A DNA stretch of 64,000 bases from an uncultured Gemmatimonadaceae bacterium (GCA_964518955.1 CAZFHS010000021.1:31058-95057); one strand, 5' to 3'. Counted from the first letter of the stretch, positions 19,237 to 44,855 are shown. Notes: generated by a model not told the origin, from the sequence alone. Program-made: numbers and translations.

Positions 19237-20451
19237 TTACTCGTATCTCAAAGCTTCGATCGGGTCCAGCAATGACGCGCGCCGTGCAGGCCAGAGACCG
19301 AAGAAGATTCCGACCATTGCGCTGAACGCAACCGCCACCAATACGGACTGCGGTGAAACGAACGTATTCCAATTGGCCAATCTCGAAAGCGCCACAGCCC
19401 CACTAGCACCAGCTGCTACTCCGATGAGCCCGCCCAATAGGCACAGAACCAACGCTTCCACCAGGAACTGCAGCATAATGTTCTTTCTGGTCGCGCCGAG
19501 TGCCTTTCGGACCCCGATCTCACGCGTTCGCTCGGTAACCGAGACCAACATGATATTCATGATCCCGATGCCACCAACCAACAGGCTCACGGCGGCGATG
19601 CCGCCCAATAGAAACGTGAACGTGCGTGTGGTCTCTTCGAACGTCTCCAAGAACTCAGACCGATCCATGATGTTGAAGTCGTTGTCCCTTCCCGGAGCGA
19701 TGCCGTGCTCGCGCCTCAACACCCGTTCGATTTCGATCATTGCAATCGTCATCGAATCGGGGTGTGCAACCTGCACGTTTATCGAGCTTACTCTATCGCT
19801 GCCAAAGATGCGGTATTGTGCGGTCTGGATCGGAACGAGGATCTGTTCGTCGGGATTGTTCCAGCCGCTCGACGACCCCTTCTCCTCCAGCAATCCAACC
19901 ACTTCGAATGGTATGCCCCGAATAACGATCTGCTGACCTATCATTGCCGGACCGTTCGCATCCAAGTTCGCCGGTACTTGGCTGCCAAGCACTGCAACAC
20001 GTTTGCGCGAGATGCCGTCACCGGCTGTGAACATCCGGCCGGCCGCAACATCGTAATTATTCACGCCGATGTATTCAGGCACCGTGCCGTTCACGTTCAC
20101 GTTGATGTTGCTGTTCGCGAATTCGACCTGCTGGTTTCGTCTTATCTCAGGTACGACCGCAGAGAGACCTCCTGCGTCGCTTGCCAGCGCAGTGGCATCG
20201 TCAATCGTCAGGCTCACCCGATCAGCGCTAGCGACACCTCGATGAAAAGACTGTCCGGCCTGAACGGACAGGAGGTTTGTGCCCAAGGCTTGGATGCGCT
20301 CCTGCACGTCCTGCTGCGCCCCGCTTCCCAGGGCCACCATTGTGATGACCGCACCCACACCAATGACAATGCCGAGCATTGTGAGAAACGAGCGCAGTTT
20401 GTTCGCCCGTATGGCGCCGAGTGCAACGTTGAAAATTTCTCCAAAGAGCAT
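19237..20451 (-). CDS. MacB/FtsX-like ABC permease
   Basis: RANKLRSFLTMLGIVIGVGAVI; GGIGIMNIMLVSVTERTREIGVRKALGA; PIEALRYE. Confidence 0.95.
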   Translation of the reverse strand: MLFGEIFNVALGAIRANKLRSFLTMLGIVIGVGAVITMVALGSGAQQDVQERIQALGTNLLSVQAGQSFHRGVASADRVSLTIDDATALASDAGGLSAVVPEIRRNQQVEFANSNINVNVNGTVPEYIGVNNYDVAAGRMFTAGDGISRKRVAVLGSQVPANLDANGPAMIGQQIVIRGIPFEVVGLLEEKGSSSGWNNPDEQILVPIQTAQYRIFGSDRVSSINVQVAHPDSMTIAMIEIERVLRREHGIAPGRDNDFNIMDRSEFLETFEETTRTFTFLLGGIAAVSLLVGGIGIMNIMLVSVTERTREIGVRKALGATRKNIMLQFLVEALVLCLLGGLIGVAAGASGAVALSRLANWNTFVSPQSVLVAVAFSAMVGIFFGLWPARRASLLDPIEALRYE

Positions 20452-20464
20452 TTGACAAACTCCT

Positions 20465-21970
20465 CTACCTGCGCGAGACGCCCGGGAGCCCACCAGCACG
20501 GCGACTCATGAATTCCTGCATTCTCTGTTGGCTCGCGAGCAGGCTGGAGCTAGGTAATACGAGCACCGTATCGCCGACCTCGAGTCCCGACACAACCTCT
20601 GAATAGTCGAGATCGGTGAGTCCGGTTCGTACCGAAATCGGTACCGGCAGTCCATCGCGCATCACGAACACCGTGTAGTTGCCTCCCATGAGCGCAGCGT
20701 CGGTGGCACTCTGACTCTCGCCCGGACGGCCACCACCTCCACCGCCTCCCTGGCCCCTACCCATGAGTTGCCGCATGATGTTGCGGTCGGCGTCACTCAG
20801 AGATCCCATCATCGAGCGCATGTCAGATGCGCCCTGCAATCTCTGTGCAAGTGCCTGGACTGCCTCCAGGTCCATGTCCTCAGGGACGGGTACCGACCGT
20901 CCCATGAGCGTGACGGTTCGCGACTCAGCCGTTGGATCCGCCGCATTTGTCTCGTTTCCGTCACCCTGTTCTCCCGCTCGCGCGGCAGCAATCTGCTGCG
21001 TCACGGCTTCCGGATCGAATCCCAATACCTGCGCGGCGGCGGTCACATCAGGACCATCGGTTCGAAGAGCTGCGTTTGGAACCGCGGCCACACCGTACTT
21101 CGACCCAACGTGCATTTCCACCTCGGCGTTCATGCCTGGCCGAAGCAAACCGTCCTGGTTGGGGATCCGAATCAGAACAGGAAACATTGTAACGTTCTGT
21201 GCGACAGTGGCCTGGGGCTCGATCCGCAGCACCTTTCCTTCGAACGGGCGGTTGGGGTATGCATCAACCAGGATCGTTACGTCGAGCCCCTCGCTGATCT
21301 TCCCGATGTCGGTTTCGTCAACAAGAGATCGAACCTGCACGGTGTCGAGGTTTGCCATCTGCAACAGAATGGTTCCGCCGCCCACCTCACGCGTAGCTGA
21401 GGAGATCACAGTGCCAACTTCAACGTTCTTCTGAATGATGACGCCATCGCCAGGTGCTCTGACGTCAGTGTCCTCGGCGGCAATCTCTGCATCCGAAAGT
21501 GAACGTTGAGCCCGCACGAGCTGTGCGTTTGCGCTGGCCACCGATAGCCTCGTGTTGTCGTACTCTTCCTCGGTGATCGACTGCGTCTCGAACAACCCTA
21601 CTGCTCGCCGCAATTGCGCCTGGGCATTCTCGAGCTGCGCCTCGGCCAGTTCCAGGTCGGCTTGTGCCTGTCGTAGCGTCGCCTGCGGGACGCGCGGGTC
21701 GACGCGTACCAGCAACTGCCCCGGACGCACGACGTCACCTGTCTCGACGTGCAATTCGAAGATCTCTCCCGACGCCTTCGACTTGACCTCTATGGTTCTG
21801 ATCGGCTCGACTGTACCCGCGGCGCTTGCAGCTACGATGATATCACGGTTCTCCACGGTCAGTAGCTGGTACATCTGTTGTGTTTCTTCCTCGTCTGACG
21901 ATCGGAAGAACCTCGTGGCGGCGATGACGCTCACCGCCACCACCGCAATTATGATCACATTCCTTATCAT
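20465..21970 (-). CDS. MacA-like membrane fusion protein with Gly/Met-rich insertion
   Basis: [46 protein letters not shown]. Confidence 0.9.
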
Positions 21971-22710
21971 GCTGTTTTCTCTACAATCATGTCCTGTTCT
22001 ACTCGGCCGTCCCGCAAGCGTATTTGGCGAGCGGCGTGATTAGCGATGTCTTGCTCGTGGGTGATCAAGACTATCGTTTGACCGGCTGCATGTAATCCCT
22101 CCATTACTCCCATGATCTCGGCGCTTGTGGCGCTGTCCAAATTCCCTGTGGGCTCGTCCGCGAGCAGAATGCTCGGTTCGTTCACCAATGCCCGCGCACA
22201 CGCAACGCGTTGACGTTCTCCGCCCGACAACTCGGCTGGGCGATGTTCTACGCGGTCTCCGAGCCCGACCCGCTCCAACGCCGTGCGGGCGCGCTCGCGC
22301 CGCACTTTTGCCGGAACTCCTGCGTAAATGAGTGGCAACTCGACGTTGTGCAGCGCTGTGGCTCTAGGCAGGAGATTGAATGTCTGGAACACGAACCCGA
22401 TTTCTTTGTTACGTATACGAGCGAGTTCGTCGTCTTCCAGCTCACTCACCTTTTGGGAATTGAGCCAATACTCGCCTGCAGTTGGCGTATCGAGACACCC
22501 CAGCAGGTTCATGAGCGTCGACTTGCCCGATCCAGATGGTCCCATGATGGCTACGAACTCGTTGCGGCGGATCTGCAGATTCGCGGATCGCAATGCGTGA
22601 ACGACTTCGGCGCCAAGCTCGTAGTCTCGTGTCAGCTTGTACGTGAGAATGACGACATCCGCCGTCGGCATATCACCGGTCTGGAATTCCTGATGGACGA
22701 TGCCGCTCAT
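21967..22710 (-). CDS. MacB/LolD-type ABC ATP-binding protein
   Basis: [29 protein letters not shown]. Confidence 0.95.
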
Positions 22711-23984
22711 AGCTCTCTCCCCACTAAGGCCTCTACCTGGGCCTTGGCGACCAGGTAGTCGAATCGCGCTTGCACGATGTCGACTTCTGCCTGATCGAGG
22801 TTTACCTGCGATGCCAACACGTCGACGATAGTTGCCGCGCCCAAGCGGTAGCGCTCGCGCTGCACACGTAGATCTTCTTCCGACGCTGCGCGACTTGCCT
22901 CAGCGATCTCGAGCCGCGTGCGCGCCGATGCAAGTGAAGCCAGATACACCGTTAGATCGGCATTGACCTGGCGCCTGGCATCCTCGGCTTGCGCTCGCGC
23001 GGTCTCCAAAGCCCACGAGGAGCGGGTGCGGTTCATCTCTCGAGTGAAGCCGTTGAACAAGGTCCAAGAGAAACTCAGCCGGGCAGACCAGCTTGGGTTC
23101 AGATCGAGCCACTGGTTTGCAGACCACGATTTAGACGCCGATGCCGTCGCTCTCGGCAGGTACTGCGATGTGGTAGCTGAGTACTGTGCCGCAGCGGAGC
23201 GTTCCCCTGCGTCCGTTTCTTGGATCAACGGCGAACGCGCCAGAGCTTCGGTGCGAAGTGACGTGGTGTCCAGATCGGAAATGACCAGGAGGTCGTCATC
23301 AGTCGCTGCGGAAACAGATCCGTCCAACCCGACAAGCCTCGCAAGATCCGCTTCCGCGGTTGATAGTTGAGTTTCGGCCTGCAGGCGCTGCAATTCCGCG
23401 TTAGCTACCTCGACATGCGACCGCAGCGTGTCGGACCGCGTAGCTGTTCCGGCATTCAGCTTCTCGATCGAGATATTCAGCTGCTCCTGGGCTCTCTCGA
23501 TCCGAGTGTCAGAAATGCGCACCAACTCTTCTGCGGACAGTGCGTTGAAAAACGCCTGCTTGACCTGAAGAATCGTTTGGAACCGCGAACTGACAAAGGA
23601 AGCATCAGCGCTGGCCAGCTCGGCATCGGCAATGCGATGGTCGGCGAGCCGAGCGAATCCATCGAATAGAGTCATGTTCGCCGAAAGGCCGGCGGAGTAC
23701 GACGATGACGATCCGGAGATTGTCGTCTGAGTCCGTTCGTCCCAGCGCGTAGAAGAGTTCACGCTACTACTTGCACTCGAAGAGAGTGAGGGAAGCCAAC
23801 TGCCCCAGGTTTGCAGTTTGGTGGCGTTGGCGTTCTCTATTGCGCCGCGAGCCTGAACCATCGACGGGAGCGTTTCCATGGCCCGTTCGATTGCTTCACC
23901 TAGCGTGATGGACTGACCCTGAGCATTCGCTGTGCCAACCGTCAGACAGCTAGCCACTGCCCACAGCCAAACTGTTCTAGTCAT
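22707..23984 (-). CDS. TolC family outer-membrane efflux protein
   Basis: Signal peptide; two OEP repeats; [16 protein letters not shown]. Confidence 0.9.
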
Positions 23985-24408
23985 GATATCTGTTTTCTCT
24001 TGACTCACGTTCCCTATCTCCCCTGCGTCTACTTCGCTCTATCATTTCACTGTATTTCGTCTGTTGTTCGGCGTCCAGCAGTTGCATGATCTCGGCAGCA
24101 ACCTCCTGGCGCAGGGTATCGATCCTCGCCCGCAGGTCTCGCCAAGCTATGCGCATATCTGCCTGACTCACCGCCAAGATCGAGTCAACAGCGGCGTGCT
24201 GATCCACCGTCAGGTTGAGGTCCTCTTGTAGGTGCTCAGAATAGCTCTTGCGCTCGCGGTCCCGTGAATCAGACGAACCGCTGCGTCTACTGCGATCGTC
24301 ATGGCCGTCGTCGCCGAGTGTACTCCACACCGGACCGGCGACCGCGACGCCGGCCGCGAAGACGGCAATCAGCAGTGTAGCTGCCCAGAGCTTAGATCGG
24401 TTGAGCAT
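23977..24408 (-). CDS. Membrane-anchored periplasmic helical protein (Spy/CpxP/CnrX-like)
   Basis: N-terminal TM; LNLTVDQ..VDSIL and LLDAEQQTKY (LTxxQ-like repeats). Confidence 0.65.
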   Translation of the reverse strand: MLNRSKLWAATLLIAVFAAGVAVAGPVWSTLGDDGHDDRSRRSGSSDSRDRERKSYSEHLQEDLNLTVDQHAAVDSILAVSQADMRIAWRDLRARIDTLRQEVAAEIMQLLDAEQQTKYSEMIERSRRRGDRERESRENRYHD

Positions 24409-35921: not shown

Positions 35922-36986
35922 TCAATACATCGCCCAGTTGTCGATCCACGCGTTGTTTATTGGGACGAACCCGGTCAGCGAATTCAGGGCGTTCTCAATC
36001 TCACACGCATAGTACAGATAGTCTTGGAACCACCCTCCTCCAATCGTTCCCGTCGGCGGGCTCATGCCCAACTGCTCGTTTAAACCGGTCACCGTAGTAC
36101 CACGAATGGTAGTGAACATCGTGTTCGTTATGAGTCTGCCTCCGATGAGCACGACTCCTCGCCACGAAAAGAAGAAACCGTTCACTATGAGATCACCGGT
36201 CACTACCAACAATCCGTAGCCACCGCCATCGTTGACCGTTAGATCTCCCGTGATGACCATCGAAGGATAAGAAGCGTCCCATGCACGGAAGGAATCGTAC
36301 TCGGCATCGAATTGCCCGCCGACGATGGACGGCCAGCCGATCATTGTCTCATTCGCGACTGACGAGCCTCCACCGCCGAGGTTGAGCGCGGGTACGCCCG
36401 TTATTACGTCGAAGTCCCCCGCATTGATGGGGCTCGCCCCTGTTGTGCGGACGCCAGTCTCGGCGGGAGCCGGTGACGCGCATTGATCGAAACCTCTCAC
36501 CCGCAGCGTACCTGAAGTGTTCACCGATAACCCGTTGGCCGCCGTGAACGCTCCAGTAATGGTCATTGCAGCACTCTGCCATTGAGCGAATTGAGCAACT
36601 GTACGCTGTGCTTGCGGATCGGAACCGCGCGTTGGCTCGATTAGAAAACCGGTAGATCGCACGATGTACAATTCATGTTCCATCGTGTCGGCCGGGCTCA
36701 TGACCTTGAAAGCGCGGACGTCCGCGAAACCGTGCGGTACGTTGATGCGCACGGAGTCGCCGTCGGGGGGGCGTACCTTCGGTGTTACACTGTCGTAGTA
36801 GGCCAGGTAACGGTTCAACCCACTCTGGGCTACCGCAAATGCGTCAACGGTTGCGCCACTGCTCTCAGCGATAATGCGATCCGCACGAACGCGCACGTGA
36901 GCAGAGGCTATCAACATGGTCATCACGGTGACCACTAATATCGTGAGCGGTAGAGCGAAGCCTCGTTCGTCGCGCATTGAGGGCAT
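35922..36986 (-). CDS. PilX-like minor pilin
   Basis: ERG|FALPL prepilin site without Glu5; AFAVAQSGL; VRSTG. Confidence 0.75.
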   Translation of the reverse strand: MPSMRDERGFALPLTILVVTVMTMLIASAHVRVRADRIIAESSGATVDAFAVAQSGLNRYLAYYDSVTPKVRPPDGDSVRINVPHGFADVRAFKVMSPADTMEHELYIVRSTGFLIEPTRGSDPQAQRTVAQFAQWQSAAMTITGAFTAANGLSVNTSGTLRVRGFDQCASPAPAETGVRTTGASPINAGDFDVITGVPALNLGGGGSSVANETMIGWPSIVGGQFDAEYDSFRAWDASYPSMVITGDLTVNDGGGYGLLVVTGDLIVNGFFFSWRGVVLIGGRLITNTMFTTIRGTTVTGLNEQLGMSPPTGTIGGGWFQDYLYYACEIENALNSLTGFVPINNAWIDNWAMY

Positions 36987-36988
36987 CT

Positions 36989-37804
36989 TCAATTCGCCCT
37001 ATTCAGAAACACTATCTGAATTGGCAAATCGAAGTCCGTATATGTCGATTTGCCTTGAGGGATTTCGTAACTCTCGGCTACCAGGTTCAGTTCGAGGCCA
37101 GCGACCGTGGACAGATCCGCAGGCGCCACATCGACAGGCTGAGGGTTCGAACCGACCAGAAACCGAAATCGCGTCGTTGAATCGAAGGGTGCTACGAGTT
37201 CTTCATATGCCCCGTTGTTCACGCGTCGCCAAAGTCCAATTCGCCCAGGTAGATCGGTCGAAGCGCTGAATCTGAATGTCACAGACTGGTACAGGTAGAA
37301 CATATATCCGTTTGGAGCCACGCTTGGCGGCGCAATGCCGACCCAAGTTCCATTTGGCACCCTACGGATGTTCTCGGCAACACAGGTGCCGGTGTCCGTG
37401 GTAGCCGTTACGGCAATGCCTTCCCGCACCGTGTAGTTACCCCCGGGCAGGCGGCGAGCGACGCCGAGTGGAGTTGCGGAGAAATACATTAGCGAGTCCG
37501 TCGGCATGAGAGAGGCAATCCTCCTGCCTCCAGAGACACCGCACGCGATTCCGAACGCGTAAGGCACACGCACGATCACGCTGTCGGGTGATGCCGCAAT
37601 CAGTCCGCCGTCCGATACCATGCGTAGCTCGACGCTCGTGACATTCTGTGCCGCCCGCGCTGTATTGCGTGCGGCCATCATGGAATCCTGCTGACTCACG
37701 AACCGTGCATCGCTCAGTAGGATACGGGTGAGTGCGGTCGCCACAATCGCCGTCAGCGTCATGGCTAGCAGCAATTCGATCAGAGTGAAACCGCGCGCGT
37801 TCAT
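36989..37804 (-). CDS. PilW-like minor pilin
   Basis: ARG|FTLIELLLAM class III signal; start re-called to ATG 37804. Confidence 0.8.
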   Translation of the reverse strand: MNARGFTLIELLLAMTLTAIVATALTRILLSDARFVSQQDSMMAARNTARAAQNVTSVELRMVSDGGLIAASPDSVIVRVPYAFGIACGVSGGRRIASLMPTDSLMYFSATPLGVARRLPGGNYTVREGIAVTATTDTGTCVAENIRRVPNGTWVGIAPPSVAPNGYMFYLYQSVTFRFSASTDLPGRIGLWRRVNNGAYEELVAPFDSTTRFRFLVGSNPQPVDVAPADLSTVAGLELNLVAESYEIPQGKSTYTDFDLPIQIVFLNRAN

Positions 37805-38217
37805 TCGAACCCGAAAGGGGACTCGGACCGCGTTCGCGTCCGCTCCACGGTGATGGTGTCGGGCCTCACGGTCGGCTGCAGGGCTCCTGTCGGCGATATG
37901 GTAATGCGCGCCAGGCGATATCGCGGGGTGTTCGTAACGAGGTCGACGCACCGCGTGTACTCTAACAGACCGGTGGCGAGGCTGTCGGTGCACCCCACAG
38001 ACGACGGTATGCTGTCCCACGGTAATCCGTGCAGCCAGGACGCCGCCGACTCGGATGCGGCACTTCGATACGCGACGCCTGCGGACGCACGCGTATGTCC
38101 TGCAATCTGGAACATCAGGACTCCGAGGGCGAGCACCACGACGCTCAGGATGGTGATCGCAACCACCACCTCGAGGAGCGAGAGGCCCTTCTCGTCCGAA
38201 GAATCGTTATGGGACAC
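37801..38217 (-). CDS. PilV-like minor pilin
   Basis: EKG|LSLLEVVVAITIL class III signal; start re-called to GTG 38217. Confidence 0.78.
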   Translation of the reverse strand: MSHNDSSDEKGLSLLEVVVAITILSVVVLALGVLMFQIAGHTRASAGVAYRSAASESAASWLHGLPWDSIPSSVGCTDSLATGLLEYTRCVDLVTNTPRYRLARITISPTGALQPTVRPDTITVERTRTRSESPFGFE

Positions 38218-38662
38218 TGGTAATTCGTACCTGGCCCGCACGAGTGATTCGCACGTTGCGTTGTACTGTGTTCACTCTCACTGTGTAGTCGCCGGCACTC
38301 CTGACGACTCCGTTGGGAAAGATCTCGAGCGTCGTGGGGTTCGCTTGTAGTTGATCCAAATTGAATTCGGTGTCGTTGCCCATGTACGCTTCGCGATACA
38401 CAGTCGTAGAGGCGGCGTCGCGGATCATGTATCCACGCAATGCTTCGCTAGCAATGAAAACCACAGGTCGGCGCTGGCGAGCTGCAATCATCTGTGCGTA
38501 TTGCAGGTCCGAGGCAATCATGGTCGCTGAACGCCGCACTCGCGCACGCTCAAGCGTTGGCGCCAACCTCAGTATCGCGAACGATGCCAGGATCGACGTC
38601 ACCACTAGCACCAACACTAGTTCGATGATCGTGAAGCCCCGCCGGCTGTGAAACAGTCCCAT
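38207..38662 (-). CDS. FimT/GspH-like minor pilin
   Basis: RRG|FTIIELVLVL, ASDLQYAQ..A, IFPNG, ITRAGQV. Confidence 0.82.
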   Translation of the reverse strand: MGLFHSRRGFTIIELVLVLVVTSILASFAILRLAPTLERARVRRSATMIASDLQYAQMIAARQRRPVVFIASEALRGYMIRDAASTTVYREAYMGNDTEFNLDQLQANPTTLEIFPNGVVRSAGDYTVRVNTVQRNVRITRAGQVRITSVP

Positions 38663-38720: not shown

Positions 38721-38735
38721 GCAAGGGTCGGGCCA
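38721..38735 (-). promoter_or_regulatory. Sigma54 -24/-12 promoter of the pilin cluster
   Basis: Minus strand TGGCCC-GACCC-TTGC, 59 bp upstream of ATG 38662. Confidence 0.6.
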
Positions 38736-38798
38736 ATTGGCTTCAGAACCATTGGTAACAAGGATCTCAATGTCAAGCGGTGCCGTCACAGCCCCGAC

Positions 38799-40184
38799 TC
38801 AGGGCTTCACAGCATCCTCGCGACGAGCTGCATTCTTGGGGCCTTCTACCGGTAGACGCAGCCGAGCCCTGCACCCAGATCTGTCGTCACGGTTCTCGAG
38901 CGTAATCGTTCCGCCGTGCCCTTCTGCGATCTGAAGGCACAGCGCTAGGCCGATACCCGACCCCTTTGTCTTGGTGGTATAAAAGGGTACGAAGAGATTC
39001 GAACTGTCAGGAATTCCGTGTCCTTCGTCCTCAACGACTATTTCCACCGCTCCGTTGTCCGTGCGCCAGTGCACTGCAACGCAACCGCCGGTTTCTTCTG
39101 CAGCGTCGACAGCGTTATCAACGAGATTGATCAACAACTGGTCGAGCTGGTCACCATCCGCGAGAATGCGGATGGCCGTACCTTCCGTCACCTCTATGTT
39201 CATCCGCGTCTCGAGCGCCGTTATCCGTTTGATCCAAGTGCCCACGTCCAGGTCCGCCAAAACCGGGGGCGGCAATCGCGCCAAACGAGCGTATGACGCC
39301 ATGAAACGGCTCAGAGCATCGGACCGTGAGGCGATGATCGAGAGGCCTTGCTGCAAGTCTTCGCTGTTCTCGGAACCAAGAGTTTCACGTTTCACGATGG
39401 TTTGGAGACTGTCTGCTATGGAACGAATTGGGGCGAGCGAGTTGTTTATTTCGTGACTCAGAACGCGGATCAACCGTTTCCACGACTGACGTTCTTCCTC
39501 TCGTAGTAGGCGACTCAGGTCTGTGAGCACGAGAAGCTGGTGCGGACGCCCGCCCTGTCGGAACGTGCTAGTTCTCACTTCCCACCGCCCGGACGCGCCC
39601 GGAAATGCTCTTTCCAGGAGACGTGGTGCGTCACCGTGCAAGCAGTCTTCGACGCCAAGGTCCGCCACGGAGCGCCCGATGAGGCTGAGCGCGGATTTGC
39701 CGAACAGCCGCTCACCTCCACGATTCACCAACCTGAGAGTGAGTGCATCGTCGAATGCGAGGACGGCGACGTCGATCTCCTCCATGACTTTGCGGAGCAA
39801 GGCAGTCGCCTCGAGTGCGCCGAGGCGCTGTTGGTGGAGTGTCTCGCCGAGGGTATTCGCCTCCAGCAGGGCCAACCCCAACGAATCGTTGCTGCTTCCG
39901 AGTCCGCGGGCTCTCATCGAGTAATCGCCTTTGTGCAACGCCGCCAGCATGTTCGAGAGAGTTTGAAGGGAGCGTACGACGCGTTCGCGGAGAACCACTG
40001 CAAAGCCAAACCAGCCGATCCCTATGAATGTGGTAAGGGTCCACTGCAATCTGGCGCTGTATTCTCCTAGCCAGAGCAGTATCAAGGCTATTGAGCTGCC
40101 TGGGAGGCCGGCCAGAAGAGCCAATCCGAGGATGAGGAGGTCGTACGAAATCCCAGACCTCCTCTCCCCCCGCCCGTCAGTCAT
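38799..40184 (-). CDS. Membrane sensor histidine kinase (HAMP-PAS-HisKA-HATPase)
   Basis: VLSHEINNSLAPI, LINLVDNA, DEGHGI, FVPFYTTK..GSGIGL. Confidence 0.95.
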   Translation of the reverse strand: MTDGRGERRSGISYDLLILGLALLAGLPGSSIALILLWLGEYSARLQWTLTTFIGIGWFGFAVVLRERVVRSLQTLSNMLAALHKGDYSMRARGLGSSNDSLGLALLEANTLGETLHQQRLGALEATALLRKVMEEIDVAVLAFDDALTLRLVNRGGERLFGKSALSLIGRSVADLGVEDCLHGDAPRLLERAFPGASGRWEVRTSTFRQGGRPHQLLVLTDLSRLLREEERQSWKRLIRVLSHEINNSLAPIRSIADSLQTIVKRETLGSENSEDLQQGLSIIASRSDALSRFMASYARLARLPPPVLADLDVGTWIKRITALETRMNIEVTEGTAIRILADGDQLDQLLINLVDNAVDAAEETGGCVAVHWRTDNGAVEIVVEDEGHGIPDSSNLFVPFYTTKTKGSGIGLALCLQIAEGHGGTITLENRDDRSGCRARLRLPVEGPKNAARREDAVKP

Positions 40185-41545
40185 AATCCGTATCGCTGGA
40201 GGCGCCTGTACAGTGCGCTACGACTCAATCCGAGCGCGTCGGCTGCCTGGCTCACGTTCCCCTCGTGACGCTGGAGTGCCTTTTCGATGAGAATCTTCTC
40301 GACCTCGTCCAGCGTCAAATCGTCTATGTGGCCGCTGCCCTCCGACGGTGCTACGAGCCCGAGGTCGTGTGCACGAACGTGGTCGTCCATGGCTAGGAGC
40401 ACCGCTCGTTCGACGGCGTGCCTGAGCTCGCGAATATTACCTGGCCAAGGGTGGTCCAGCAGTGCCTGCGAGGCGTCTTCCGAAAAGCCCGCTTTGGGTT
40501 TTCTGTAGCGCTTCGCCTGACGCTCTAGGAAATGTTGCGCCAGCAACGGTATGTCCTCTCGACGCTCGCGGAGCGGCGGAAGGTGTATTTCGACAGTGTT
40601 GAGCCGATAGAGCAGGTCTTCCCGGAATCGACCAGCCGCAACTTCTGCCTGTGGATCAGCATTGGTGGCCGAGATCACACGCACGTCGACCTGTCTGGTC
40701 TTCGACGACCCCACTCTTTGGACTTCGCCTGTCTCCAGCGCCCGCAGCAGTGTAGCCTGCTGTTTCATCGGTACGTTTGCGATTTCGTCGAGGAACAGAG
40801 TCCCGTCGTTTGCCAACTCGAAGCGGCCGACCCTATCTGCCTTGGCGTCGGTGAACGCTCCCTTCACGTGCCCGAACAACTCGCTTTCGAACACACCCTC
40901 CGGTAGACCCCCGACATTCACTGCAACCAGGGCTTTTGATGCTCGATTGGATGAAGCGTGCAGCCAGTGGGCAACTACTTCCTTTCCTGTGCCGTGCTCT
41001 CCGGTGACCAGCACGTTTGCGTCGGAGGGGCCGATCCTCTCGATGACCTGGAGAACGGGTCGCATAGCGCGCGATTCTGAGATGAACTCGGGTAACCCCT
41101 CTTTTCTCAAGAGCCGGTTCTCACCTTCGAGTCGGTGAGCCTTCCGCAGAGCTCGGCCCAACTCGACCTGGGTTCTGAGCGTCGCAACCAGACGCGCGTT
41201 GTCCCAGGGCTTCTCTACGTAGTCCTTGGCGCCTCGCCGCATGGCTTCCACCGCTCCGTCGACGCTTCCCCAAGCTGTCATGACGACCACTGGCAGATGT
41301 GAGTCCATGGTTTGAAGGCGGGAAATCAGGTCCATCCCCTCTAGGCCCGAGGTTGTGTCACGAGTGTAGTTCATGTCCATCAAGACCGCATCTACATCCT
41401 TGCTCTCGACAACGCGCAGGACTCCCCCCGGAGAAGTTGCGGTCTCAGTCGTGAAACCCTCGCCCTTGAGCAGCAAACGTAGGGCCTCCAGCACGTCTCG
41501 CTGGTCGTCGGCAATCAGAATCCGTGGGGACGATGAAGTGGTCAT
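40181..41545 (-). CDS. NtrC-family sigma54-dependent response regulator (GAFTDA variant)
   Basis: REC domain; GEHGTGKE, ESELFGH.KGAFTDA, LFLDEI, WPGNIREL, Fis HTH. Confidence 0.95.
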   Translation of the reverse strand: MTTSSSPRILIADDQRDVLEALRLLLKGEGFTTETATSPGGVLRVVESKDVDAVLMDMNYTRDTTSGLEGMDLISRLQTMDSHLPVVVMTAWGSVDGAVEAMRRGAKDYVEKPWDNARLVATLRTQVELGRALRKAHRLEGENRLLRKEGLPEFISESRAMRPVLQVIERIGPSDANVLVTGEHGTGKEVVAHWLHASSNRASKALVAVNVGGLPEGVFESELFGHVKGAFTDAKADRVGRFELANDGTLFLDEIANVPMKQQATLLRALETGEVQRVGSSKTRQVDVRVISATNADPQAEVAAGRFREDLLYRLNTVEIHLPPLRERREDIPLLAQHFLERQAKRYRKPKAGFSEDASQALLDHPWPGNIRELRHAVERAVLLAMDDHVRAHDLGLVAPSEGSGHIDDLTLDEVEKILIEKALQRHEGNVSQAADALGLSRSALYRRLQRYGL

Positions 41546-41559
41546 TTCGCGCTCCGGCG

Positions 41560-42225
41560 TCAGCTATCGACGATCCATCCGTCGTGGAGCTGGATGATCC
41601 TATTGCCGTACTTGGCGTAATCCTCGTTGTGAGTGACCTGAATGATCGTGGTTCCCTCTTGGTTCAGGCTCTTGAGCAGGTCCATGATCATCACGCCTTG
41701 CGAGGAGTGAAGGCTGCCGGTTGGCTCGTCTGCGAGTATCAGCTTGGGGCTCGAAACCATCGCCCTGGCTACCGCCACCAGCTGCTGTTGCCCGCCTGAG
41801 AGCTGAGTCGGATAGAGATCCTTCTTTCCAACGATTTGGAACTTGTCGAGCATGTCGGCTACGATGGCCTGTCGCTCAGATCTGCGAACGTTCCTGTACG
41901 AGAGAGGAATGTCGAGATTCTCGTACACCGTGAGGTTGTCGAGCAGATGGTATTGCTGGAAAACGAACCCGATGTACTGCTTGTGTAGTTCATTCCTCTT
42001 CTTGGTCTTGAGCTCATGCACAGCGTTGTCCACAAAATAGAATTCTCCAGCCCAGGCTCCGTCGAGCATGCCCAGAATGCCCAGCAGCGTGGATTTGCCG
42101 GCGCCGGATGGGCCCATTACGGTGACGAACTCGCCCTGGTGGATGTCTAGCGTGATCTGACGAAGTACAAACTGTTTGGTGGCTCCGAGTGGGTAGAATT
42201 TCTCTACGTTTCGCAGTGATATCAT
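41560..42225 (-). CDS. ABC ATP-binding protein (LolD/MacB-type)
   Basis: GPSGAGKST, LSGGQQQ, ADEPTG. Confidence 0.93.
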   Translation of the reverse strand: MISLRNVEKFYPLGATKQFVLRQITLDIHQGEFVTVMGPSGAGKSTLLGILGMLDGAWAGEFYFVDNAVHELKTKKRNELHKQYIGFVFQQYHLLDNLTVYENLDIPLSYRNVRRSERQAIVADMLDKFQIVGKKDLYPTQLSGGQQQLVAVARAMVSSPKLILADEPTGSLHSSQGVMIMDLLKSLNQEGTTIIQVTHNEDYAKYGNRIIQLHDGWIVDS

Positions 42226-42325
42226 GCGTCAAACCCTGAATATTGAGTTATGTGGAATCTTAGCTGCCGGGTCGGGATTTGCCACATCCCACTCCAGAAG
42301 ACGATGCCCCTGGAATATCTATAGA

Positions 42326-42340
42326 GCAATATCGATGCCC
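42326..42340 (-). promoter_or_regulatory. Probable sigma54 -24/-12 promoter for ATPase-RR-HK
   Basis: Minus strand GGGCAT-CGATA-TTGC(T), about 100 bp upstream of ATG 42225, followed upstream by an AT-rich tract. Confidence 0.5.
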
Positions 42341-42436
42341 GGTAGCTGGTCGGCATTAACTTATTATACAACAACATGTTACAGAGGCTGCCCTTGTCCG
42401 GAGATTACGTCTCCTGTTCAATCATGGAAAGTGAAA

Positions 42437-42453
42437 ATCCCAAAATCGAACAC
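42437..42453 (-). promoter_or_regulatory. Putative enhancer (UAS), copy A
   Basis: Minus strand GTGTTCGATTTTGGGAT; 15/17 identical to 44800-44816. Confidence 0.5.
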
Positions 42454-42503
42454 TTTGCCGTCCAGGCCAAAAAATTGAAAAAGGGTTCGTGTCGAAAAAC
42501 AAC

Positions 42504-42616
42504 GAGCAGCCATAGTGGTGAGGCAGTGCTCCCCACCAGTATAGCTGCTCTATGAAAGATCGTGTGAGCCAGTGACCCGCGACCGCCGTCTACGGGTCAC
42601 CATGAACGCGGCTCAC
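42504..42616. other. Two adjacent long hairpins downstream of the first ATPase
   Basis: GAGCAGC..TGGTG/CACCA..GCTGCTC (42504-42550) and nested GTGAGCC[GTGACCCG/CGGGTCAC]GGCTCAC (42564-42616). Confidence 0.5.
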
Positions 42617-42622
42617 CACAAA

Positions 42623-43372
42623 TCATGTCATCTCGAAACCGCTCTCCTCGAGCTTCGTCTCGTGTTCCTTCGCGGCCTCGCCTGACTCGTCTTCGACTAC
42701 CCTGCCGTCAAACAGATGGATTGCCCTGTCGGCATGCGCGGCGTAGCGAGGGTCGTGAGTGACCATGCAGATCGTCGCTCCCTCACGGTGGAGGTCACGC
42801 AGCAATTCCATCACCGCTTCGCCGTTCGTCGAATCGAGGTTTCCTGTCGGCTCGTCGGCCAGTAGAATCGCCGGATCGCCAGCCACCGATCGTGCAACCG
42901 CAACGCGCTGCTGCTGACCACCCGATAGCTGAGAGGGATAATGCTTCATGCGGTGAGACATGCCGACTCTCTCGAGGGCCTCTTGCACGCGCTTCTTGCG
43001 CTCGGCCGAGGGCATGTCACGATACGTGAGGGGCAACTCGACATTCTCGAATACCGTTAGATCGCCGATCAGGTTGAATGCCTGGAAGATGAAGCCGATC
43101 TGGCGGTTCCTGATTCGAGCCCGCTGCGACGCCGATATGTTGGCGACCGGCGTGCCGGCAAGCGTGTAGGCCCCGTCGGTCGGCGTGTCAAGCAAACCGA
43201 GGATCGATAGCAGGGTTGTCTTGCCGCACCCTGAAGGCCCCGCGATGCAGACATACTCACCCTCTTTGATCTCGAGGTGAATGCCGGCCAGCGCATGTGT
43301 CTCCACCTCTTCGGTGAAGAACACCTTCTTCACGCCTTCGAGCTTGATCAACGTTTCGGTTTGTTCTACCAT
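42623..43372 (-). CDS. ABC ATP-binding protein (LolD/MacB-type)
   Basis: [31 protein letters not shown]. Confidence 0.95.
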   Translation of the reverse strand: MVEQTETLIKLEGVKKVFFTEEVETHALAGIHLEIKEGEYVCIAGPSGCGKTTLLSILGLLDTPTDGAYTLAGTPVANISASQRARIRNRQIGFIFQAFNLIGDLTVFENVELPLTYRDMPSAERKKRVQEALERVGMSHRMKHYPSQLSGGQQQRVAVARSVAGDPAILLADEPTGNLDSTNGEAVMELLRDLHREGATICMVTHDPRYAAHADRAIHLFDGRVVEDESGEAAKEHETKLEESGFEMT

Positions 43373-43391
43373 GGAGTCTTTCCTCTCGATG

Positions 43392-44648
43392 TTACCGGAT
43401 CCTCACCCGGTCATATGCATCCCACTGCGACATATCAACGAGGATCACAACGTCTCCGATCCGGAGACCCTCCTCGATTTCAATTGTGTTGACAGAACTT
43501 CGACCTAAGCGAACGTTCACGCGCTCGGCGTACCCGCCGCCATCGACCAGTTTGAAGAGTCCGACCGTGGAGTGTGCCTGGCCGTATGCCGGCCTACCGA
43601 CAAACAACACATCCTCCAAACGTTCGAGCTCGATGATACCCTCGACTGCCAGTCCGGGGCGAGCGCTCCGAGGCAGCTCCGGTGGCAGCGCCACGTCGAC
43701 AACCACGACACCATCCTGCGCCGCCGGGTCGATACGGATGACCTGGCCCATAATCGTGTCAGTGCGTGTGTCTACCAACGCGTCCTGGCCTAGTGCGACA
43801 TCTCTAGCTTGGGTTTGTGGAATCCTGAGTTCGGCCTTTAGCCGTTCGGGCACCACCACCCGAGCCAGCGTCTGACCGTTCATCACCCATTGTCCCTCTT
43901 CAAGATCCATCTCCTGGAGGACACCGTTGATGCCGGCTCGGACCTGCATGGATGCAATCCGCTCCTGTTGGAACGCGACGATACCTGTGAGGCGCTCAAT
44001 CTGTTCCTGTTGCACGATGAGCTGTGGCTCCTCGGACTGCTGCATGATCTCGAGCCGCCGCCTCTCTAGGCCCAAGCGAGTTTCGAGCTCGACCCCCTGT
44101 TCGAGTGCGTTTTGCAGCTCCACCTCCGAGACGTAGCCCTCTCCCTTCGTCGAAAGTTCCGCGAGAGCCTCGGCGTTGCGCTGAGCAGCCAGGTACTGCG
44201 CATTCACCGTTGCGATAAGGCTTTCCTGGTTGAGGCGTTGCGTCTGAAGATTGGATCGGAGCATCACTAGCTGCTGGTGAGCAGCAGACAATTGGCGCTG
44301 TGATTCGAGCAGCTGAAGTTGAACGTCCGGATTGCTCAGTTCGACCAGGATCGTATTGGATGTTACGGTGTTGCCGGGCTGCACATACTTCCGTTCAACC
44401 CGTCCCTGCACCTGCGCAGGAATCCAGCGGATCTGCTCAGGTACCAGGTTCCCAGGCCCACGCACACGGATCAGCATCAGCCCTTGTTCGACCGTGTCCA
44501 TCCAAATGGTGGCTCGATCTACTGTAGGAGCTGCCGGTTTCAGACGGGACAACCCGATAGTCGTGAGAACGATCGCAACAAGGGCGATTCCCCACGGTAT
44601 GTATTTCTTGCGTTTTGGTGGTGGCTCTCTTGCTATATCCACGGCCAC
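43392..44648 (-). CDS. HlyD/MacA-like membrane fusion protein
   Basis: TM anchor; VRGPGNLVP, VRAGINGVL, VIRIDPAA, VEGIIELE, VRLGRSS..IEI.EGL. Confidence 0.9.
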   Translation of the reverse strand: MAVDIAREPPPKRKKYIPWGIALVAIVLTTIGLSRLKPAAPTVDRATIWMDTVEQGLMLIRVRGPGNLVPEQIRWIPAQVQGRVERKYVQPGNTVTSNTILVELSNPDVQLQLLESQRQLSAAHQQLVMLRSNLQTQRLNQESLIATVNAQYLAAQRNAEALAELSTKGEGYVSEVELQNALEQGVELETRLGLERRRLEIMQQSEEPQLIVQQEQIERLTGIVAFQQERIASMQVRAGINGVLQEMDLEEGQWVMNGQTLARVVVPERLKAELRIPQTQARDVALGQDALVDTRTDTIMGQVIRIDPAAQDGVVVVDVALPPELPRSARPGLAVEGIIELERLEDVLFVGRPAYGQAHSTVGLFKLVDGGGYAERVNVRLGRSSVNTIEIEEGLRIGDVVILVDMSQWDAYDRVRIR

Positions 44649-44710
44649 GTTCCCCCTTTGGGCCTACCAACATTGTAATTGACGAGCAGTAACCGCTACG
44701 GGTTTCATTG

Positions 44711-44725
44711 GCAACGCGCATGCCA
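44711..44725 (-). promoter_or_regulatory. Sigma54 -24/-12 promoter of the MFP-ATPase unit
   Basis: Minus strand TGGCAT-GCGCG-TTGC, 63 bp upstream of the start at 44648. Confidence 0.75.
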
Positions 44726-44799
44726 AATGGTGGAACGTGTGTAACTGGTTGTGATTAAAGCGTTTACGGGTGTGGGTGTGGGTGCTGTGGATAGGTGCT

Positions 44800-44816
44800 G
44801 TGTTCGGTTGTGGGAT
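44800..44816 (+). promoter_or_regulatory. Putative enhancer (UAS), copy B
   Basis: GTGTTCGGTTGTGGGAT, 75-91 bp upstream of the -24 box. Confidence 0.5.
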
Positions 44817-44855
44817 CTATCATCCCATGACCGAACAGTGCGGCTTCGGGAACCG

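Follow-up and report, generated by a model that had tools for sequence, protein, structure and literature searches.

The window, a 64,000-nucleotide stretch of DNA from an uncultured Gemmatimonadaceae bacterium (GCA_964518955.1, CAZFHS010000021.1:31058-95057), carries on its minus strand a locus that encodes, in order, a periplasmic adaptor (MFP), two ABC ATPases (ATPase1, ATP1; ATPase2, ATP2), an NtrC-type activator (RR) and a histidine kinase (HK). By fold and parts it is a type VII ABC system, and it would form the core of a MacAB-like envelope pump. We propose, with a probability of about 0.68, that it provides a shared ATP motor and adaptor for approximately 70 dispersed orphan permeases of the ADOP family, a reading drawn from comparison of gene content, gene order and sequence. 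The transmembrane partner would be a family of many genes, and not a single one. The genes of the core are:

43392..44648, minus strand: MFP, periplasmic adaptor, 418 aa (Pfam HlyD_3, HlyD_D23; NCBIfam RND_mfp, DarC-like)
42623..43372, minus strand: ATP1, stand-alone MacB/LolD/DarD-type ABC ATPase, 249 aa, with the canonical D-loop NLD
41560..42225, minus strand: ATP2, second stand-alone MacB-type ABC ATPase, 221 aa, with the D-loop SLH in place of NLD
40181..41545, minus strand: RR, NtrC-family sigma-54 activator (Pfam PF00072, REC; PF00158, Sigma54_activat AAA+; PF02954, HTH_8; all over cut-offs)
38799..40184, minus strand: HK (Pfam PAS, HisKA, HATPase_c; HAMP-like linker)

Domains were identified with Pfam and NCBIfam, structural relatives by sequence search of solved structures (PDB), and the membrane topology of the kinase was read off the translated sequence. 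The window is part of contig C21 (97 kb) of its genome, G000, a 5.98-Mb assembly of 94 contigs that is 93.6% complete. ATP1 and ATP2 were 42% identical, and the Walker A and B motifs, Q-loop, signature motif and H-loop were canonical in both, leaving the D-loop as the sole difference. MFP scored 92.9 bits against RND_mfp, slightly under the cut-off of 94.9, had weak PDB matches to MacA, MexJ and EmrA, and had no close paralogue in G000; a GTG at 44642 may be its true start. The preliminary description of this DNA had reported an adaptor and two distinct ATPases with no permease, and the Pfam and NCBIfam searches agreed: no FtsX permease was found in the locus, and the nearest on the contig lay 19 kb off in a separate operon that encodes an unrelated, complete pump. 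Genes of the OEP family (TolC) numbered about 10 in G000 and none in the locus. ATP1 ends in a tail of about 20 residues (…EHETKLEESGFEM; window 42623-42690) that a few distant orthologues (L024, L041) share and most others lack.

ADOPs take their name from the absence of an associated ATPase, and they have been catalogued as ATPase-less "orphans" since the first acidobacterial genomes. Genes were called as ADOPs when they scored over the curated TIGR03434 cut-off of 622 bits, and G000 contained 67 such matches, at 700-949 bits. Each has MacB_PCD and FtsX domains (Pfam) twice in tandem, and each half aligns to MacB (PDB 5nik, 5lil). An ABC ATPase was found within 10 kb of none of 75 ADOP reading frames. 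Fifty-five ADOP genes lay directly downstream of a gene from one PadR-like cluster; two members of this cluster were sampled against TIGR03433, one scoring over the cut-off and one below. At the N-terminus of the dispersed ADOPs is a HAAS-type prefix, which is paired with PadR. Among the MacB/LolD-type ATPases of G000, 9 of 11 abut conventional single-unit FtsX permeases, and only ATP1 and ATP2 do not. These counts of neighbours indicate that G000 holds two orphan ATPases, one orphan adaptor and approximately 70 orphan permeases of the matching superfamily. Both coupling-helix motifs of the permease (RxEIxxRxALGA) were strongly conserved in all 68 ADOP paralogues.

Earlier work treated ADOPs as efflux-like orphans (PMC3914696) or the N-terminal prefix as a signalling device, with no motor named (PMC11237479). 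In the literature searched, no paper named an ATPase partner for ADOPs. Published work on ADOP and PadR (TIGR03434/TIGR03433) thus names no motor, and this locus is a candidate motor and adaptor.

Two side observations concern the family itself. Five ADOP genes of G000 contain a single in-frame stop (TAA, TAG or TGA) and otherwise score as full-length (C19:7820-10258, C1:29982-32387, C14:104356-106749, C34:17573-19960 and C10:20158-22581); they may be pseudogenes of recent origin in an expanding family, or the stops may be sequencing errors. A 378-aa frame (G000:C22:10275-11411) has two FtsX matches, no room for MacB periplasmic domains and no ATPase nearby, and it may be a stripped-down ADOP derivative.

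A scan for relatives of ATP1, with one genome per species, returned at least 596 loci, of which the best 80 were examined for gene order. These came from Gemmatimonadota and Acidobacteriota (Gemmatimonadaceae, Longimicrobiaceae, Bryobacteraceae, Pyrinomonadaceae, Vicinamibacterales, Terriglobia, Thermoanaerobaculia and others), and they showed 73-83% identity in ATP1 and variations on the same gene order. Within the same family and order, the orthologous locus read MFP-ATP1-(ADOP)0-4-ATP2-(ADOP)0-4-RR-HK, for example MFP-ATP1-ADOP-ATP2-RR-HK (L024) or MFP-ATP1-ATP2-ADOP-RR-HK (L030, L031). RR-HK was a constant member and closed the core. In most relatives, 1-9 ADOPs lie within the locus. The permease-less core was also seen among the best 80 loci in Bryobacteraceae, Acidobacteriaceae and Gemmatimonadota, and the locus of one species of the genus, G004 (L034), is permease-less with the same flanking genes as the window. 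ADOPs were originally defined as orphans by the lack of an adjacent ABC ATPase; this holds in G000, and not in relatives whose ADOPs flank the ATPases. It had been stated beforehand that pairing of each ATPase with an adjacent permease in relatives would speak against a shared hub. Such pairing is literally present in many relatives, and the permeases concerned are ADOPs from all clades, which names the partner family and does not refute the hub.

ATP1 was the most conserved protein of the locus: identity within the order was 76-84%, compared with 47-57% for MFP in most loci and 55-60% for HK. High conservation of this kind would fit a subunit that matches many partners.

Co-occurrence was assessed in a panel of 41 genomes (G000 and 40 relatives), in which ATP1 orthologues were called at 76% identity or more. 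ADOPs were present in 30 genomes and ATP1 in 27, and all 27 genomes with ATP1 had ADOPs. Each of the 11 genomes without ADOPs also lacked both ATP1 and ATP2. The three ADOP-bearing genomes with no detected ATP1 are fragmented assemblies, 85-91% complete. Both states were present in genus g23, where the presence and absence of ATP1 and ADOPs varied in step. ATP1 was single-copy in 26 of 27 genomes, with two copies in G012. The six genomes with a permease-less core had one ATP1 orthologue each and 30 to more than 50 ADOPs each. On a complete 6.8-Mb Bryobacteraceae chromosome, the core lay at 0.25 Mb and the listed ADOPs at 0.4-6.6 Mb.

A maximum-likelihood tree of 266 ADOPs, 68 from G000 and 198 from core loci, was labelled at the tips by the preceding gene. 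ADOPs directly after ATP1 (57 tips) required 41 parsimony changes, against a shuffled mean of 50, and those directly after ATP2 (22 tips) required 18, against a shuffled mean of 21. Permeases adjoining either ATPase were spread over all major ADOP clades, and those of G000 fell in most clades. A dedicated partner clade was rejected: no ATP1- or ATP2-specific clade was present among the 266 ADOPs, and there is therefore no cognate clade that could simply have relocated in G000. As a separate observation, 29 of the 68 full-length G000 ADOPs form one clade (support 0.95) with almost no members from other genomes, evidently a recent lineage-specific burst.

The locus also carries candidate elements for its own control:

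44711..44725, minus strand: P1, sigma-54 -24/-12 box TGGCATGCGCGTTGC, ahead of MFP-ATP1
42326..42340, minus strand: P2, sigma-54 -24/-12 box GGGCATCGATATTGC, ahead of ATP2-RR-HK
38721..38735, minus strand: P3, -24/-12 box TGGCCCGACCCTTGC, ahead of minor pilin genes
44800..44838, minus strand: upstream activating sequence 1 (UAS1), palindromic candidate enhancer CTGTTCGGTCATGGGAT-gatag-ATCCCACAACCGAACAC, identified from sequence
42414..42453, minus strand: UAS2, palindromic candidate enhancer GTGTTCGATTTTGGGAT-tttcact-TTCCATGATTGAACAG, identified from sequence, with 2 mismatches to the consensus
42572..42600, minus strand: hairpin directly 3' of the ATP1 stop (inverted repeat GTGACCCG...CGGGTCAC), identified from sequence

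The three boxes of the preliminary description were read directly off the minus strand, and all have GG-N10-GC spacing. G000 encodes rpoN (TIGR02395 match of 416 bits, over the cut-off; G000:C15:50323-51795), and no sigma-70-like promoter was seen ahead of any of the three units. The strict box TGGCAY-N5-TTGC was not enriched in G000, with 13 observed and about 24 expected from base composition, so the box alone is no evidence. The two 17-mers GTGTTCGGTTGTGGGAT (reverse complement, 44816-44800) and GTGTTCGATTTTGGGAT (42453-42437), already noticed at P1 and P2, were indeed identical at 15 of 17 positions. Each is a single arm of a longer inverted repeat of 37-40 bp. The claim that they stand in opposite orientations was not upheld, since each site is a palindrome with both arms, of which only the better had been noticed at each promoter. 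At both promoters the box begins 112 nt downstream of the T of the left-arm TGTTCG, within the 80-150 bp usual for such activator sites, and the consensus of the site is TGTyCG-N4-yGGGA-N7/8-TCCCr-N4-CGrACA.

Under relaxed criteria the 6-Mb genome contained 20 matches to the palindrome, six of them with two or fewer mismatches; UAS1 at P1 was the sole perfect match. The survey across relatives covered 90 orthologous loci and 1.6 Mb of locus sequence. Absence of the motif from orthologous loci had been named beforehand as a ground for refutation; the palindrome was found upstream of the MFP gene in 48 of the 90, in both Gemmatimonadota and Acidobacteriota. These sites account for 48 of the 63 palindromes in the 1.6 Mb and are confined to about 43 kb (binomial p ~4e-62). 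A box was found in 23 loci, in most of them 109-114 nt from the palindrome. The remaining good palindromes were upstream of ATP2, the RR gene or core-locus ADOP genes, and UAS2-equivalent sites were present ahead of ATP2 in the distant loci L035 and L070.

UAS2 and P2 were kept in the sister species G001-G003 (P2 box in G001, GGGCACCGATATTGC) and were absent in G004; P2 is evidently younger than P1. The positive autoregulation proposed in the preliminary description remains the natural reading of P2, which lies ahead of ATP2-RR-HK, and would be limited to part of the genus (G001-G003, not G004). The hairpin at 42572-42600 was also present in G001 and G004, in a spacer that has otherwise diverged. 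A terminator scan did not call it, and it lacks a T-tract; it may be a terminator or processing hairpin that parts the two operons or ends the P1 transcript. A Ser/Thr protein kinase gene (~330 aa) stands between P2/UAS2 and ATP2 in G001 (L004:393-1403), G002 and G003, where P2 would drive kinase-ATP2-RR-HK. This gene is absent from the window, and the gap between P2 and ATP2 there is about 100 nt.

Two palindromes elsewhere in G000 are recorded as side observations. One (G000:C11:104561-105667; 2 mismatches) is followed 113 nt downstream by a box, CGGCACACACGTTGC, ahead of a gene for a 305-aa secreted protein that contains two Lumazine_bd_2 (NTF2-like) domains, and may be an extra target of RR or of a paralogue with the same contact loop. 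The other, a near-perfect palindrome (G000:C47:14029-14637), precedes a reading frame of 160 aa that is rich in Lys and Ala and resembles histone H1; the sole sigma-54 box at the right spacing points the opposite way, into the 3' end of a convergent gene.

Several points weigh against a motor shared by the dispersed ADOPs. A missing permease or ATPase gene is still possible, given that the assembly is 93.6% complete. The co-occurrence of ATP1 and ADOPs (Fisher p = 1e-7) is uncorrected for phylogeny, and the genomes are not independent. ADOPs stand beside the ATPases in many relatives, and outside the permease-less genomes pairing may be local only. The HAAS-PadR pair has been read as a signalling dyad (Ravi et al. 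2024, PMC11237479), and given this dyad some ADOPs may be sensors rather than pumps. RR carries the sigma-54 contact loop GAFTDA instead of the canonical GAFTGA. This loop was found in 33 of 43 RR orthologues, alongside conserved sigma-54 promoters, and in 3 of the 16 bacterial enhancer-binding proteins (bEBPs) of G000; being common to most orthologues, it is a lineage or family trait and not a lesion. A further point comes from the genome scan for the enhancer and -24/-12 box at orphan permeases that had been suggested earlier. The palindrome and half-site scan of G000 found no dispersed ADOP or PadR unit with the enhancer, and motor and permeases are therefore not co-regulated by RR. Control of the dispersed permeases by RR was rejected: only two further candidates were found, C11:104561 and C47:14029, and neither is a pump gene. 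Of the shared hub as first proposed, the permease-less module, the 67 dispersed orphan ADOPs and a deeply conserved motif have been borne out; the physical pairing is a proposal drawn from comparison of relatives.

The same points allow a narrower reading, in which MFP, ATP1 and ATP2 serve only ADOPs of the core locus, the cognate permease has moved to one unlinked site in this genus, and the other ~65 ADOPs are ATPase-independent HAAS-PadR membrane sensors. The 1-9 ADOPs inside the locus of most relatives, the published signalling role of the prefixes (PMC11237479) and the lack of common regulation between core and dispersed ADOPs would all agree with it. We nevertheless consider it unlikely: the ADOPs adjoining ATP1 and ATP2 come from every major clade with no orthologous cognate clade among them, permease-less cores recur in Bryobacteraceae, Acidobacteriaceae and Gemmatimonadota and always with 30 to more than 50 dispersed ADOPs, and conservation of RxEIxxRxALGA in all 68 paralogues is unexpected if most never bind an ATPase. 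A decaying remnant, in which this genus has lost the permease by deletion and the adaptor and ATPase genes left behind are heading for loss, is very improbable. Relatives have ADOPs between or after the ATPases where the window has a 397-bp spacer between ATP1 and ATP2, and the different gene in that gap in the sister species, the Ser/Thr kinase, shows recent rearrangement; both would accord with a relic. Between G000 and G004, however, both with permease-less loci, nonsynonymous divergence (dN) was ~0.03 and synonymous divergence (dS) saturated for both ATPases, which indicates strong purifying selection. The catalytic motifs, promoters and enhancer are all intact, and the permease-less layout is kept in distant lineages; on dN/dS the relic hypothesis was rejected.

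A different question is whether ATP1 and ATP2 work together. It is possible, if doubtful, that they form two separate pumps, with ATP1 and ATP2 homodimers each energising their own subset of ADOPs and with P1 and P2 as independent units under one regulator; this arrangement is compatible with a shared motor and differs from it only in subunit composition. ATP2 orthologues were found in 23 of the 41 genomes and never in an ADOP-less genome, and the two genomes with ATP2 and no detected ATP1 are fragmented assemblies. In six relatives with ADOPs the locus is MFP-ATP1-ADOP(-RR-HK) and ATP2 is absent, so that ATP1 alone can evidently serve, and each ATPase is often followed by its own ADOP (MFP-ATP1-ADOP-ATP2-ADOP). 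Complete catalytic motifs in both proteins likewise accord with two pumps, and a degenerate ATP site, considered as a sign of a heterodimer, was not decisive, both ATPases being canonical bar the D-loop. Against separate pumps, the ADOPs after ATP2 form no separate clade, two ATPases accompany a single ADOP in L024, L030 and L031, and ATP2 has no adaptor of its own, being seen in contiguous loci alongside ATP1 and one MFP. The D-loop of ABC transporters is located at the dimer interface. It read NLD in 104 of 104 ATP1 and N/SLH in 60 of 60 ATP2 sequences, and this fixed Asp-to-His difference, together with a permease of unlike halves, would fit an asymmetric dimer at least as well. The heterodimeric ATPase of the preliminary description thus stays possible and is not obligatory, given the six relatives without ATP2; two kinds of homodimer are equally allowed.

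If the locus does serve as a shared motor, the following sequence of events may be envisaged. An ADOP released by its own PadR would recruit two ATPase subunits onto its two cytoplasmic coupling helices, and MFP would dock on the ADOP periplasmic domains, so that a single motor-adaptor set could serve many substrate-specific permeases. The assembled pump would expel a periplasmic or outer-leaflet substrate, possibly via one of the ~10 TolC-type ducts. HK, with two N-terminal membrane helices and only about 8 residues of loop between them, would sense within or at the membrane, as suggested by the near absence of a periplasmic loop, and would phosphorylate the NtrC-type activator; its gene start overlaps the RR stop (ATGA). 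The activator would bind the palindrome of 37-40 bp that starts 112 bp ahead of the -24 box, promoting sigma-54 transcription of MFP-ATP1 from P1, and in this genus would also drive ATP2-RR-HK from P2, giving positive autoregulation. HK, RR and sigma-54 would in this way set the size of the common motor pool. The physical pairing of ATP1, ATP2 and MFP with dispersed ADOPs, the binding of RR to the palindrome, the signal and the substrates are all, we infer, as outlined. A more elaborate, self-metering version is quite improbable: an ATP1/ATP2 heterodimer, asymmetric in its D-loops, would sit on the two unlike halves of any of ~70 ADOPs with one adaptor, HK would read motor load as BceS reads BceAB, and the GAFTDA activator with sigma-54 would match motor and HK supply to the summed PadR-gated demand.

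Comparison with known exporters places the proposed system near MacAB-TolC (type VII ABC, mechanotransmission; PDB 5nik, 5lil). Common to both are an adaptor of the HlyD type and MacB/LolD-clade ATPases (E = 1e-59 to MacB), together with, on the proposed pairing, a partner permease of MacB_PCD and FtsX units. Candidate TolC-type ducts are encoded elsewhere in G000. In MacB, the ATPase is fused to a single dimerising membrane unit; here the ATPases are free-standing and of two different kinds, the membrane part is covalently duplicated, and one adaptor-ATPase set faces ~70 permease genes. The MacAB-type permease, encoded with or fused to its ATPase, is absent from this locus, present in cis in relatives, and in G000 would be supplied in trans.

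Free-standing ATPases are also known. The best solved-structure match of ATP1 was the ATPase Spr0694 of the S. pneumoniae Spr0693-0694-0695 system (PDB 5xu1; 1.4e-68), and DarD and DarC of the darobactin exporter DarBCD were among the best NCBIfam matches of ATP1, ATP2 and MFP. The scores fell far below those for membership of DarBCD (ATP1 256.5 and ATP2 249.9 against 375 for NF038007, DarD; MFP 35.6 against 450 for NF038010, DarC). Spr0693-0695 and DarBCD likewise have an ATPase separate from the permease. Unlike the present locus, which has none and whose proposed partner is duplicated, they have one adjacent single-unit permease.

E. coli YbbA works with one long permease, YbbP, that has two FtsX-type units. 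In YbbA-YbbP (PDB 9ge6-9ge8) the free-standing ATPase is of the MacB clade (YbbA, E = 3e-56 to ATP1), and the system differs from ours in being a one-to-one operon pair with one ATPase species and no adaptor. ADOP had no match to YbbP when solved structures were searched by sequence.

The nearest parallel in logic is with the group II energy-coupling factor (ECF) transporters, in which one energising module (EcfAA'T) serves many membrane subunits, the S-components, encoded elsewhere. EcfA and EcfA' are two different ATPases, and MsmX and MsmK are shared sugar-importer ATPases. These are importers of unrelated folds, and the likeness to ECF and MsmX/MsmK is one of working principle and not of membership.

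For the regulators, RR resembled ZraR, AtoC and NtrC (E ~1e-109) in its REC, AAA+ and HTH_8 domains, though below every cut-off, and in a candidate enhancer ~100 bp upstream of a -24/-12 box; it differs in GAFTDA in place of GAFTGA. BceS-type intramembrane sensors have a minimal extracellular loop and read a type VII ABC transporter. HK here also has a minimal extracellular loop, a possible likeness to BceRS-BceAB; unlike RR, BceR is an OmpR-type regulator independent of sigma-54.

Two neighbouring features lie outside the core:

35922..38662, minus strand: four prepilin-type minor pilin genes, the first GspH/FimT-like (Pfam N_methyl, GspH)
19237..24008, minus strand: conventional pump operon with a TolC-type outer-membrane factor, MacB-type ATPase and FtsX permease; it has its own ATPase

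The pilin genes adjoin the HK gene only in this genus (G004 alone among the loci examined). No UAS-like site was found within 600 bp of P3, and in G004 the GG and TTGC of P3 are kept with a different spacer. P3 is probably outside the circuit, contrary to the first proposal of three linked promoters, and is more likely served by another activator, as suggested by the lack of a palindrome, the genus-limited position of the pilins and the 16 bEBPs of G000. The pump operon shows that fully linked, ordinary pumps coexist with the split system.

In soil Acidobacteriota and Gemmatimonadota the ADOPs rank with the largest paralogous families, each genome holding tens to more than 100 copies. Because the adaptor-ATPase core is single, highly conserved and equipped with a sigma-54 two-component switch of its own, the question of their motor becomes experimentally tractable. 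If the proposed sharing is true, loss of ATP1 or MFP should disable the whole ADOP family at once, and one tagged core protein should recover the active permeases. With the 37-40-bp palindrome and the GAFTDA activator, a non-canonical sigma-54 contact loop could be studied in a clean natural setting. Should the self-metering version hold, the modular ECF importers would have their first counterpart among exporters, under two-layer control with specificity set by PadR and capacity by sigma-54. Sharing in itself would be a new principle in the organisation of ABC exporters, many permeases being served by one motor and adaptor, and would have a bearing on the ways in which abundant soil bacteria withstand a diversity of antibiotics, peptides and metabolites of plants or microbes.

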